A stretch of 31,081 bases of DNA from Microgenomates group bacterium (GTDB lineage Bacteria > Patescibacteriota > Microgenomatia > UBA1400 > PJMF01): the NCBI GenBank assembly GCA_009776965.1, contig WRMU01000001.1:1-31081 (forward strand), in the 5' to 3' direction. Below, one piece after another: positions 14,419 to 20,895 of this stretch. The position numbers were made by a program, and so were the translations under genes. Every line of letters starts with the position of its first letter. Position 1 is the first letter of the stretch. Below the pieces are notes generated by a model. That model was not told the origin of the DNA and made no database searches. It worked only from the letters and a program-made list of their open reading frames with translations.

Positions 14419-14843
14419 TCAGATTTTTCTTCGCCGATATTTCTCGGACACCCTAATTCTCGTTAACTCTCTCTCCATTCTGGCAGTTAAAGAAGCCACT
14501 TCTTCCACATTGAGTCGATCTTTCTTTTTCATCAGCTCCTCCGCCTCTTTTCTCGCTTGTTTGGCCTGATCTAGATCTATTTCTTCCACTTTTTCTGCCG
14601 ATCTAGACAGCACTGTCAATTCATTGTCCGAGAACTCCGCTATCCCCAAAGAAATTACCAAATGTTGCCAGTTATTGTCCTCCTTTTTACGTCTAATACT
14701 CACTTCTCCCGCCTTTAAGGCAGCTAAATAAGGCGTATGGTTAGGCAAAATACCCACTTCCCCCTCTGTTGTTGGTAATAACACCTCATAAACCTCACCC
14801 GCAAACACATTTCTTTCTGGAGTATTCACGCTTAGTTGTATCA

Positions 14844-14844
<1 letters not shown>
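14419..14844 (-). CDS. atpC: F1 epsilon subunit
   Basis: VNTPERNVF, PTTEGEVGILPNHTP, SAEKVEEID; operon position. Confidence 0.95.
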
Positions 14845-17153
<2,309 letters not shown>

Positions 17154-17154
<1 letters not shown>

Positions 17155-18653
17155 TAAATCACGCTCTTTTTATAATCATTAATTAATTTTTCAACAGCCT
17201 TTACCACTTCTTTCGTCCAGTCTTTCTCGCTTGACAATAAACTCATCGCCTTTTCTCCTTTTTTACTTTGGGCAAAACGCAATAAACCTTGTTCAAACTC
17301 TCCTATTTTCTCTTTTTCCACATCATCTAAAAATCCATTGCTCAAAGCATACAAAACCAGTGCTTCTTGCTCCATGGATAGCGGCGAATACTGTTTTTGT
17401 CGCAGCAACAAAGTCGCCCTTTGTCCTCGTTCAATTTGCTCGCGCGTTTTATTGTCCAGATCACTCCCAAATTGAGTAAAAGCTTCCAGCTCTCTAAATT
17501 GCGCCAAATCAATCCGCAATCTTCCCGACACTTTCTTCACTGCCTTAGTTTGTGCGCTCCCTCCCACTCGCGATACACTCAAACCCGCATTAATCGCCGG
17601 TCGATGTCCTCGATAGAAAAGATCGCTCTCCAAATAAATCTGCCCGTCAGTGATCGAAATCACATTAGTAGGAATGTAGGCGCTGCTATCTCCCGCTTGC
17701 GTTTCGATAATCGGTAAAGCGGTAATTGATCCTCCGCCGTGAGCTTTATTTAACTTAGCTGCTCTCTCCAACAATCTTGAGTGTAGGTAAAACACATCCC
17801 CTGGATAAGCCTCTCTGCCGGGGGGACGGCGCAAAATCAACGACATTTGCCGATAAGCCACCGCATGCTTACTCAGGTCATCATATATAATCAATACGTC
17901 CTTGCCCTGATCCATAAAATACTCTCCAATCGCACAGCCAGCATACGGCGCAATATAAGAATAAGCTGCTCCTTGAGACGCTCCGGCCACCACCACAATC
18001 GTATAATCCATAGCTCCACACTCTCGCAGATTTTCCACTAGTCTAGCCACTTTGGATTCTTTCTGCCCAATACTCACATAAATACAAATTACGTCCTGAT
18101 CCTTCTGATTAATAATCGTATCTATAGCTATCGCTGTCTTACCCGTTTGTCTATCTCCAATGATCAGCTCCCTTTGTCCTCTCCCAATTGGCACCATCGC
18201 ATCAATAGCCTTGATACCCGTCTGCAGCGACTGATGTACTCCTTCTCTAGCCATTACCCCAGGCGCATTTTTCTCAATCGGATAATAAACTTTGGTCTTA
18301 ATCGCCTTCCCCTCATCTAAAGGCCTGCCTAAAGGATCAATAATTCTTCCCAACAAATCATCACCTACCGGTAAAGACAAAACTCGCCCTGTTTGGACCA
18401 CTTTTTGTCCTTCCTTAATATCTTGCGCCTCGCCAAACAAAATCACCCCCACTTCGTCCTCCTCAAGATTAAGTACCATCCCCACTTCTCCGTTCTCAAA
18501 CTCCACCATCTCGCTATTCATTACTTCCGATAGCCCTTGCACTTTAACCACTCCATCCATAACTTGCACCACTCTGCCTGTTTTTTGCACTGCAAAGTCA
18601 CGCTTAAACTCAGCCGTTTTTTCTTTTAGAGACTGTAGTAAATAATTATCCAT
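17154..18653 (-). CDS. atpA: F1 alpha subunit
   Basis: [48 protein letters not shown]. Confidence 0.99.
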
Positions 18654-18665
18654 GTTTACCTTTCT

Positions 18666-19067
18666 TCATGTATTAAGCTGTTTAGTTAGTTTTTCCAGCT
18701 GGGACTTTAGAGTTAAATCATAAAGGTCATCATTCACCTGAATTGTTAATCCTCGCTGCTCAGCATCAATCATTGTTTCCAAAATAATTTTTTTTGCTCT
18801 TACTTTTCCTTTAAGAAAATCAGTAATTTGTTTAGTTTGAGTGTTGCTCAAAGCAGCATCTGAACTCACTCTTGCGCGCACAGTACCTTCTTTTTCGTCC
18901 GCATATGTTTGCAACAAAGAGACTATTCGCTCCAGTTGGTCCATTTTTTTATGTCGTCTCAATTCCTTCATCAAAACTTCTATCACCGCTTCAATTTCCT
19001 GTCTACTACCCTTTTGAGTCAAAGGCAATAAGTTTTTAGCGATGGTAGTTGACGAAAAATAAGGCAT
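18666..19067 (-). CDS. atpH: F1 delta subunit, short (133 aa)
   Basis: Position between atpF and atpA; C-terminal RARVSSDAAL...GLTIQVNDDLYDLTLKSQL. Confidence 0.8.
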   Translation of the reverse strand: MPYFSSTTIAKNLLPLTQKGSRQEIEAVIEVLMKELRRHKKMDQLERIVSLLQTYADEKEGTVRARVSSDAALSNTQTKQITDFLKGKVRAKKIILETMIDAEQRGLTIQVNDDLYDLTLKSQLEKLTKQLNT

Positions 19068-19070
19068 TGT

Positions 19071-19559
19071 TTATTTAAGTCCTTCCTGCAAGTAAACCTG
19101 ATCTATCTTTTTTGCCTCCACCTGCTGCCCCGTCACTCTCTCTACTCCCATAACCACCAAGTCTGCCATCTGCTCCTGAACTTGAGTCAGCATCGTTTCC
19201 TTTTCCCTTGCCAACTGCAATTCACTTTGAGCCAATACTCGCGCCGCTTGTTCTCGAGCCTCATTCAAGGCTTCACTTTTAATCTGCTCTGCCTGAGCTT
19301 GTGCTTGCGTCAGCAATTCTTTAGCCTCTTTTTTTGCCGCTAGCAAAATCTTCTCTTTTTTTTGGTCAGAAACAACCAAAGTTTCCTCTGCTCTACGAGC
19401 ATTATCTATTCCGTCGGTAATTTCCTTTTGTCGTTTTTCCAATAAAGCCACTATTTTGTCCCAAGCAAACTTTTTCAAAATCCAGTAAATAATCGCAAAA
19501 TTAACTAGTTGCGCAATCAAGTTTTTTACGTCCAAACCCAAGGCACCAATAAGTCCCAT
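19071..19559 (-). CDS. atpF: Fo b subunit
   Basis: LIAQLVNFAIIYWILKKFAW, then LEKRQKEI and a coiled coil. Confidence 0.95.
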   Translation of the reverse strand: MGLIGALGLDVKNLIAQLVNFAIIYWILKKFAWDKIVALLEKRQKEITDGIDNARRAEETLVVSDQKKEKILLAAKKEAKELLTQAQAQAEQIKSEALNEAREQAARVLAQSELQLAREKETMLTQVQEQMADLVVMGVERVTGQQVEAKKIDQVYLQEGLK

Positions 19560-19577: not shown

Positions 19578-19805
19578 TTAAGCGAATATGCAGAGTAACG
19601 CAACTACTAATGCATAAATACCAGTGGATTCACAAATCGCCATCACCACAAACAAAGTGCTAGTAATTTTATCAGCTGCTTCTGGATTACGTCCAATTGC
19701 TTCGTATGCCTTACCTCCCACATAACCCTCAGCCAAAGCTGGCCCCAAAGCACCTAAGCCCATCGAAACCCCTGCCGCCACATATCTTAAAACTTCTGAT
19801 TCCAT
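19578..19805 (-). CDS. atpE: Fo c subunit with Na+-type signature (P22, E26, E59-S60-T61, Y64)
   Basis: Gly-rich helix 1, RNPE loop, ESTGIY in helix 2. Confidence 0.97.
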   Translation of the reverse strand: MESEVLRYVAAGVSMGLGALGPALAEGYVGGKAYEAIGRNPEAADKITSTLFVVMAICESTGIYALVVALLCIFA

Positions 19806-19844: not shown

Positions 19845-20600
19845 TTACTTTTTATTTTTTACTACTGCCACCTCTTTTTCTTCTCCCATCGCTTGTCCCA
19901 AATAAACCGTGGCTAACGATGCGAATACTAAGGCTTGAACCACACAAGTGAGCATGCTCAAAAACGTAAATGGGATGGGCAGAATAAAAGGAGCTAAAAA
20001 CATCATCACTGCTGTCAATACCTCGCCCGCAAATAAATTGCCGAATAAGCGAAAAGACAAAGACAGGGCCTTAGCCAGCTCACCAACAATATTCATCAGC
20101 CCTAACACAAAATTAATCGGGCTAGAAAAATCAAACCATTGTTTCATATAAGGCTTAATTCCCTGATATGTGATAAACAAAACCTGCACTAGCCCTACCA
20201 CCAGCAAAGTTAACACTAACACTTGTCCGTAATCAGCCAATGCTGTGCGGAAAATAGGGACTTCTCCTTGCTCTCTGCGCAGCGAGAAAGCACTTAAAGC
20301 TGGCATTAAGCTGAATAAATTACAAAACAAAATATAAAAGAACAGCGTAATTACTAAAGGGAAAAGTTTTTTGGTTTTGTCGCGACTTCCGGTCATCATA
20401 CTTACACTATTCAACATCCATTCCACCACCATTTCCACTGCCACCTGTAATTTGTTAGGTATCAACTGCCATTTTTTCATCACTCCTAATATCATTCCCA
20501 ACAACAGCAAAGTCACCACCATCTGCCAAAAAAAAGAATTGGTTACCCCGAAGCCAAAAATGGTAAACAAAACTTCTGGCGACAGCGATATATTAATCAT
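19845..20600 (-). CDS. atpB: Fo a subunit
   Basis: P..LQVAVE, SLSFRLFGNLFAGE (essential Arg), VQALVFASL..Y. Confidence 0.97.
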   Translation of the reverse strand: MINISLSPEVLFTIFGFGVTNSFFWQMVVTLLLLGMILGVMKKWQLIPNKLQVAVEMVVEWMLNSVSMMTGSRDKTKKLFPLVITLFFYILFCNLFSLMPALSAFSLRREQGEVPIFRTALADYGQVLVLTLLVVGLVQVLFITYQGIKPYMKQWFDFSSPINFVLGLMNIVGELAKALSLSFRLFGNLFAGEVLTAVMMFLAPFILPIPFTFLSMLTCVVQALVFASLATVYLGQAMGEEKEVAVVKNKK

Positions 20601-20836
20601 TTCTTAGCGGTTTCATCCACCTTTCTTTTTGCAAATACCGAAATAATCAACGTAGTGGTTAAAAAAGCAGCCACTATCCCAGCTGCCAAAAACAAAGCAT
20701 TATTAAAAACAGAGTGTAACCAAAAACCCAATCCTCCCAAAACCAATAGAGGTAACAAAGTAACCTTCATACTAAAAAGACGAGCTTCTTTGCGGACTTG
20801 GTTCATGGCGTCTATAGCCTCTGCCTGTGTTTTCAT
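20597..20836 (-). CDS. AtpZ/AtpI-like two-TM protein (start 20836 preferred)
   Basis: First in the operon, ATGA overlap with atpB, two TM helices. The track start (20884) lies upstream of the promoter. Confidence 0.65.
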   Translation of the reverse strand: MKTQAEAIDAMNQVRKEARLFSMKVTLLPLLVLGGLGFWLHSVFNNALFLAAGIVAAFLTTTLIISVFAKRKVDETAKK

Positions 20837-20851
20837 AAAAACCCAACGCGG

Positions 20852-20880
20852 ATTATATAGTACCTCCCCTCCTCTGTCAA
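20852..20880 (-). promoter_or_regulatory. Perfect consensus sigma70 promoter TTGACA-N17-TATAAT of the atp operon
   Basis: Plus-strand TGTCAA at 20875-20880, ATTATA at 20852-20857, 17-nt spacer. Confidence 0.85.
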
Positions 20881-20895
20881 TCATTGATTGACAGA
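20873..20895. repeat. Perfect 23-bp palindrome TCTGTCAATCA-T-TGATTGACAGA over the atp -35
   Basis: 11-bp arms around a 1-nt centre, seen directly. Confidence 0.9.

Follow-up and report, generated by a model that had tools for sequence, protein, structure and literature searches.

The c ring of Fusobacterium nucleatum binds Na+ with E32, E65, S66, and the backbone carbonyl of V63, together with a water molecule fixed by T67 and the A64 carbonyl; Y70 and S66 are hydrogen-bonded to E65, and E32 stays protonated (PMC3692424). Na+ and Li+ both stimulate this enzyme and protect it from DCCD, and it synthesizes ATP only with Na+ (PMC3692424). A two-carboxylate site like this one, in an F-type enzyme of the regular kind, is already known. 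The published sequence rule for Na+-type c subunits, that of Mulkidjanian and co-workers, is E or Q in helix 1 plus E[STQ][STQ]xxY in helix 2 (bioRxiv 10.64898/2026.10.01.756066). The same preprint of 2026 carries ion-type marks on trees and remarks on short delta subunits in CPR bacteria. N-type ATPases have no delta subunit and a gene order of atpD-C-Q-R-B-E-F-A-G, and stand beside a main F- or A-ATPase (Dibrova et al. 2010). The ProAD database (PMC11738941) holds ion-type predictions for all GTDB genomes, with a single Na+ F-ATPase in 4% of bacterial genera. In the open literature, no paper discussing Na+-type c subunits or Na+ energetics in Patescibacteria was found beside these database-level predictions and the 2026 preprint.

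The window, as the whole analysed stretch of 31,081 nt is called here, belongs to a Patescibacteria MAG (G000) of 709 kb in 65 contigs, which is 86% complete and has a single rotary ATPase. This enzyme is encoded by a complete operon on the minus strand, in which a small two-helix membrane ORF is followed by atpB-E-F-H-A-G-D-C, with all subunits identified (Table 1). Directly upstream on the same contig is pnp, coding for PNPase, and downstream of atpC are unrelated genes for one unknown protein and an Exo_endo_phos nuclease. Strand asymmetry is very strong in both window and genome. In the window, GC skew stays between -0.1 and -0.4 over the full length, for the most part without regard to which way the genes run. 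Among the 25 largest contigs (C1-C25), most are skewed by roughly +/-0.2 to 0.39, and the mean |GC skew| of all 65 contigs, weighted by length, is 0.26.

Table 1. Coordinates of the atp operon features in the window, listed in the direction of transcription.
Feature	Position	Strand	Length	Remarks
Sigma-70-type atp promoter	20852..20880	-		TTGACA (20880-20875), 17-nt spacer, TATAAT (20857-20852); 12/12 consensus matches
Small two-helix membrane ORF	20597..20836	-	79 aa	AtpI/AtpZ position, upstream of atpB; likely start ATG 20836
atpB, Fo subunit a	19845..20600	-	251 aa	Pfam ATP-synt_A, E 3.1e-37; R184 (= E. coli R210), N188, E193, N170 (= E. coli E196)
atpE, Fo subunit c	19578..19805	-	75 aa	Complete two-carboxylate Na+ motif E26, E59, S60, T61, Y64 (plus P22; backbone positions I57, C58)
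atpF, Fo subunit b	19071..19559	-	162 aa	Pfam ATP-synt_B, E 4.4e-22
atpH, short delta	18666..19067	-	133 aa	Covers only positions 57-172 of the 172-position OSCP profile
atpA, F1 alpha	17154..18653	-	499 aa	Pfam profile match
atpG, F1 gamma	16240..17154	-	304 aa	Pfam profile match
atpD, F1 beta	14844..16226	-	460 aa	NCBIfam TIGR01039, 827.9 bits (cut-off 462.85)
atpC, F1 epsilon	14419..14844	-	141 aa	Full length; NCBIfam TIGR01216, 111.2 bits (cut-off 67.25)

The perfect consensus promoter reported by the first-pass annotation was found again in front of the operon. The small ORF that follows has no Pfam or NCBIfam match, and homologues stand at the same place in the Na+-type relatives L033-L035, L037, L040, and L044. 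It probably starts at the ATG given in Table 1 and not at position 20884 given by the ORF finder, because the latter lies upstream of the promoter. This first ORF of the operon begins about 15 nt past the -10 box and has no Shine-Dalgarno sequence (20834-20852, minus strand), so the mRNA would be nearly leaderless. A perfect palindrome of 21-23 bp, CTGTCAATCA-A-TGATTGACAG, at 20873-20895, directly after the pnp stop codon, spans the -35 box of the promoter and could be an operator site.

The window enzyme is of the regular F-type and not an N-ATPase, as the regular atpD model passes its cut-off, while the alternate-F1F0 (alt_F1F0) models for beta, c, and a fail, with scores of 607.7 (cut-off 752), 66.7 (cut-off 130.85), and 79.2 (cut-off 302.1), respectively. 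The delta gene, the canonical gene order, and the position as sole rotary ATPase of the assembly likewise set it apart from N-type ATPases.

The product of the ORF at 19578-19805 matches PF00137 (Pfam ATP-synt_C) with an E value of 5.9e-18 and 65.3 bits at a cut-off of 24. It has the hairpin of a c subunit, with E59 in helix 2 and a polar loop G-R-N-P-E-A of the R-N/Q-P type. By residue count, P22 and E26 are in the string GPALAEG and E59, S60, T61, and Y64 in ESTGIY. In HMMER alignments to PDB 3ZK1 and 1YCE, no gaps occur from P22 to the C-terminus and the offset is constantly 6, just as the first-pass annotation had it for the Ilyobacter site. In these alignments, P22 corresponds to P28 of the solved rings, E26 to E32 or Q32, E59 to E65, S60 to S66, T61 to T67, and Y64 to Y70, and the string ESTGIY is identical in the solved Na+ rings. 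Both parts of the rule of Mulkidjanian and co-workers are present, with E26 in helix 1 and E59-S60-T61-G62-I63-Y64 in helix 2. A two-carboxylate Na+ site of the F. nucleatum type, also claimed at first pass, is thus supported as far as sequence goes, including Thr at E+2, which is absent from the H+-coupled ring of Burkholderia pseudomallei. The five side-chain ligands are invariant in a clade of four genera, in which the c subunits are 68-69% identical to that of the window. This invariance, the ESTGIY string shared with the solved rings, and the absence of the motif from 26 of 30 related c subunits show that the motif is more than chance. Na+ is the probable physiological coupling ion of the window enzyme.

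Two other positions of the c subunit were also noted. Directly before the ion-binding Glu is C58 (19632-19634, minus strand), invariant in the four-genus clade as A-[IV]-C-E-S-T-G-I-Y and replaced by Ala in the solved Na+ rings. The helix-1 Gly positions flanking the carboxylate are Ala at two positions (GPALAEG), unlike in the solved Na+ rings. Ala at these positions is linked to larger ring size in other rings.

In subunit a, the essential Arg is kept. R184 in LSFRLFGN aligns with E. coli aR210, in agreement with the retained Arg of the first-pass annotation, and the equivalents of N214, E219, and Q252 are retained as well (compared with E. coli subunit a, PDB 5T4O). In the tree of a subunits, all 58 H+-type rows are on one side of a branch with support of 97, and all Na+ and partial types are on the other, the window subunit a among them; this split along ion type indicates that a and c co-vary as a module. 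At the position of N170 (20093-20095, minus strand), which corresponds to E. coli aE196, all 57 H+-type CPR rows have Glu, and Na+-type rows have Asp or Asn. As a general marker of Na+ coupling this position was ruled out, because Asn also occurs there in the H+ enzymes of chloroplasts and mycobacteria.

The survey of atpE motifs across Patescibacteria proposed by the first-pass annotation gave a divided picture, with the full motif in the four-genus subclade and in at least six of 203 other genomes, and a proton-type site in 26 of 30 related loci. In particular, a c-subunit match was found in 33 of 40 related genomes, and 30 loci were read. Four of these loci, from the window genome and from three other genera of the same family (G007, G011, and G018), have E...ESTGIY. 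In the remaining 26, Ile, Leu, or Val stands in helix 1, and helix 2 reads E-A-[IV]-A-I-Y. The Na+ motif is not a family trait. Four of 24 genomes of this family (f1) had no c match with the window query (G004, G008, G016, and G023; 89-98% complete), and parts of the family may no longer have an ATP synthase.

A scan with one genome per GTDB species revealed about 15 more Patescibacteria MAGs that carry this motif, including two goat jejunum MAGs (L036 and L038), along with the intermediate motifs ESGAIY, ESIAIF, ESTAIY, and ESVAIY. From across the phylum, 400 other genomes were sampled evenly, and a c match was present in 203 of them (204 of 401 with the window genome included); this tally takes in G193, which is flagged as unpublished and on which no other claim rests. 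The full motif was present in at least six of the 203 (G177, G423, G116, G383, G185, and G098) and a partial one in three, six being a minimum because the best-scoring 29 of the 203 were inspected. They sit in families that also have proton-type members. Both ion types occur together in some other Patescibacteria. G383 (L178 and L179) has two complete F1Fo operons, one Na+-type and one H+-type; at L032:4324-6225, an extra c gene (ESVAIY) is upstream of an a-c pair (ESTGIY); and in G116 (L177) an a-c pair (ETTGIY) follows an epsilon gene, with no b-to-beta genes behind it.

Every c ring also binds H+, and where Na+ is in short supply, enzymes of the Na+ type pump H+ instead; which ion is used in practice thus depends on Na+ and pH of the habitat. 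The ring could be H+-coupled or ion-switching despite its motif, with protons moved at low Na+ or low pH and Na+-like residues that only tune proton affinity. Several relatives that share the motif are from what seem to be groundwater or lake-water samples and not gut samples, and Na+ may be low in such waters. The partial motifs ESGAIY, ESIAIF, ESLGIY, and ESVAIY in related CPR rings suggest a graded trait, and the helix-1 Ala substitutions and Cys58 depart from the solved Na+ rings. The N-ATPase c17 ring of B. pseudomallei, which has two carboxylates, Thr, and Tyr, showed no more than unspecific effects of salt on NCD-4 labelling, and its authors concluded that it is H+-coupled (PMC5376962), but its residue at E+2 is Met, while window c has Thr there. 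All rings with the full set of E/Q and E-S/T-S/T-x-x-Y tested so far are Na+-coupled (F. nucleatum, PMC3692424; rule of the preprint), and the complete ligand set is strictly conserved in the four-genus clade. For the window enzyme, proton coupling or switching is, on this evidence, unlikely.

The operon and its genome do not share the same history. In the PNPase tree, the four genera form a clade with support of 99 inside family f1, with the other families of the order outside, and the family members around them either have a proton-type c or gave no c match. The beta tree disagrees, as it unites the window with its Na+-type kin in a clade (100/98) that is sister to a proton-type operon of Moraniibacteriota (98/92) and separate from the proton-type clade of family plus order (23 rows, 100/97). 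The alpha tree gives the same picture, as the Na+-type genomes are outside the H+-type clade of family plus order and beside the Moraniibacteriota operon. Forcing family and order together in the beta tree cost 52 log-likelihood units and is rejected by the AU test (p-AU 0.0036), with the groups being taxonomic but tested after the tree was seen, and the trees being unrooted and partial in sampling. The Na+ types are in three separate groups of the beta tree, and holding them together is rejected more weakly (p-AU 0.02). The architecture also differs, as the window has a separate delta of 133 aa, while many H+-type members of the family have none of delta size.

Since pnp groups within the family, but alpha, beta, a, and c do not, the whole operon was replaced. 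It is highly likely that the ancestor of the four genera swapped its proton-type atp operon for a Na+-type one from another lineage of Patescibacteria. The Na+ type in family f1 is an acquisition, not a retained ancestral state. We also read the trees as showing that Na+-type Fo modules moved between F1 backgrounds more than once. A wider proposal is that the coupling ion of Patescibacteria is a swappable module, in which a and c pass between F1 backgrounds or lineages. Here, a complete Na+-type operon would have taken the place of the ancestral proton-type operon, in adaptation either to a host-associated niche rich in Na+ or to membranes that leak protons, in a subclade that includes ruminant-gut members, with the Na+ ATPase as sole primary ion pump. 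Taken as a whole, this proposal is speculative and rather doubtful; if true, the whole membrane energetics of such a cell would run on sodium.

Many of the H+-type operons of the family (L157, L158, L160-L165, L167, and L170) have a gap of 0-240 nt between b and alpha and an N-terminal extension of alpha of 30-70 residues. This gap and the extended alpha suggest that delta may be lost, tiny, or fused in these operons.

The energy inventory of G000 includes PGK (phosphoglycerate kinase) and pyruvate kinase. The pyruvate kinase match (G000:C15:13134-14087) has one in-frame TAG, which may be due to a sequencing error, to breakage of the gene, or to an effect at the edge of the match. There are 65 ORFs with at least four membrane helices as predicted by a rough hydrophobicity scan, and 62 of them were scanned against Pfam. 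Families recognized among these 62 are flippases, glycosyltransferases, SecY, SecD, SecF, YidC, ABC permeases, MgtE, MscS, a CDF transporter, a CaCA (Na_Ca_ex) exchanger, an AEC carrier, an AI-2E transporter, and three P-ATPases (one Cu-type, one Ca-type, and one H+/Mg-type), and 14 of the 62 have no Pfam family. No respiratory complex, decarboxylase pump, or other recognizable Na+ symporter was among them. Models for H_PPase, Na_H_Exchanger (CPA), Rnf-Nqr, and SSF found nothing in G000, in three Na+-type sisters (95-98% complete), or in one H+-type relative. No dedicated Na+ consumer was clearly identified in the G000 inventory. The organism-wide Na+ cycle of the first-pass annotation is thus not borne out by the gene inventory, in which no Na+-PPase, Rnf/Nqr, CPA antiporter, SSF symporter, or decarboxylase pump was recognized. 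A pump or antiporter could be hidden, since the assembly is 86% complete and 14 proteins are without a Pfam family.

Three other candidates of the inventory were set aside. MatE gave no more than weak sub-cut-off matches in G000, and the strongest of them overlaps an ORF assigned by Pfam to MurJ. Na_Ca_ex is not a marker of the Na+ type, as it occurs in Na+-type and H+-type genomes (e.g., H+-type G010). A P3-type P-ATPase as proton-pump partner was rejected, because the three other Na+-type genomes have none at an E value of 1e-30 or better, and elsewhere identity is at most 38%. The P-type ATPase in question (G000:C38:3018-5543, L118) has plasma-membrane H+-efflux (P3A) and Mg2+ (P3B) ATPases as best models, both sub-cut-off; with no match in the sisters and at most 38% identity to other relatives, it looks like a sporadic acquisition.

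Taken together, the locus is more plausibly than otherwise explained by a regular F-type F1Fo ATPase with a c ring built for Na+ and used for ATP-driven export, in an operon acquired by replacement. By homology to the F. nucleatum ring, each ion site would be at the interface of two adjacent c hairpins, with Na+ coordinated by the E59 and E26 carboxylates, the S60 hydroxyl, the I57 backbone carbonyl, and a water molecule that T61 and the C58 carbonyl keep in place. E26 would stay protonated and hydrogen-bonded to E59, Y64 would lock E59, and ions would be exchanged at subunit a opposite R184. Judged by the gene inventory, the enzyme would run in the hydrolysis direction, export Na+, and set both membrane potential and Na+ gradient, on which secondary systems (e.g., SecDF, the CaCA exchanger, and the CDF transporter) would depend. 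Hydrolysis is the most likely direction because of glycolytic substrate-level phosphorylation with no recognizable respiratory chain or other primary Na+ pump. Given Na+ coupling, ATP-driven pumping would very probably be the main mode, and on this inventory the Na+-coupled F1Fo would be the sole primary Na+ pump of the cell. The first-pass annotation had left two options, and of these ATP-driven Na+ pumping fits the inventory better, while use of an existing gradient fits less well.

In the latter option, the enzyme would be a Na+-driven ATP synthase, and the cell would harvest a Na+ gradient made by the environment or at contact with a host cell. Synthesis is compatible with the c ring and with the full-length epsilon, CPR bacteria are regarded as episymbionts, clade members come from ruminant gut with high Na+ (goat jejunum MAGs L036 and L038), and no other Na+ pump was found in the genome. 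On the other hand, we know of no mechanism for sharing the ion gradient of a host, glycolytic ATP sources are present, and a standing inward gradient needs continuous Na+ export, for which no other exporter was recognized. Moreover, vesicles of F. nucleatum with a Na+ concentration gradient and no membrane potential gave no synthesis (PMC3692424). Na+-driven synthesis as the role of this enzyme is, therefore, improbable. That the contig is mis-binned or the operon decaying, so that the gene says nothing about the organism, could be suspected from the fragmentation of the MAG (65 contigs) and from wrong NCBI labels of several close relatives (e.g., 'uncultured Pseudomonadales'), but it is highly improbable, as the operon shares its 31-kb contig with pnp, a gene that groups with family f1, the same operon type is in three sister genomes, all nine reading frames are intact behind a consensus promoter, and the strong GC skew of the operon is like that of the rest of the genome.

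CPR bacteria have no respiratory chains, many of them have no ATP synthase at all, and their membranes may leak protons. A sodium-type enzyme as sole rotary ATPase would mean that some of these cells use a sodium current made from fermentative ATP. Close relatives of the same lifestyle are proton-type, and the four Na+-type genera nested among them are a natural experiment on the choice of coupling ion. The locus also contributes a case to the discussion of sodium as against proton bioenergetics in bacteria that branch early or are reduced. As the c ring is small and expressible in E. coli, the Na+ prediction is directly testable without cultivation.

Compared with known systems, the window enzyme resembles that of F. 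nucleatum (c11 ring, PDB 3ZK1) in Glu of helix 1, Glu-Ser-Thr-x-x-Tyr of helix 2 with equal spacing, and a regular F-type operon. This ring is the second-best PDB match of window c (E 4.2e-15), and about half of the aligned residues are identical by our own count. Window c is shorter at both termini (75 aa compared with 89 aa), has GPALAEG where F. nucleatum has GPGIGEG, and has Cys instead of Ala before the key Glu. In F. nucleatum, the enzyme works in synthesis on a Na+ gradient made by a decarboxylase, while no such pump was found in G000. With Ilyobacter tartaricus and Propionigenium modestum (PDB 1YCE), window c shares P28, E65, S66, T67, and Y70 as P22, E59, S60, T61, and Y64, but it has Glu26 in place of their Gln32, which makes it the two-carboxylate variant. 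The best PDB match by score is the Na+ F1Fo of Acetobacterium woodii (PDB 4BEM; c1, E 2.5e-21), also a Na+-coupled F-type enzyme of an anaerobe. That enzyme has a fused double c in addition to single c subunits and Gln in helix 1, while the window has one single-hairpin gene and Glu.

The N-type c17 ring of B. pseudomallei (PMC5376962) is similar in its two carboxylates (E30 and E61), Thr at E+1, and Tyr at E+5 (E61-T62-M63...Y66). It differs in Met at E+2 in place of Thr, and so is without the water-holding Thr of window c, as well as in H+ coupling and an N-type operon with no delta, the window operon being F-type. The a and c subunits of the window fall in a CPR lineage of Na+-type c and a subunits (GEG ... 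ESTGIY). Unlike the Patescibacteria with a double Fo for Na+ and H+, G000 has one Fo set in one operon, without a proton-type partner. In our reading, what is new here is a clean case of a single, putatively Na+-only operon in place of the proton-type operon of the family.
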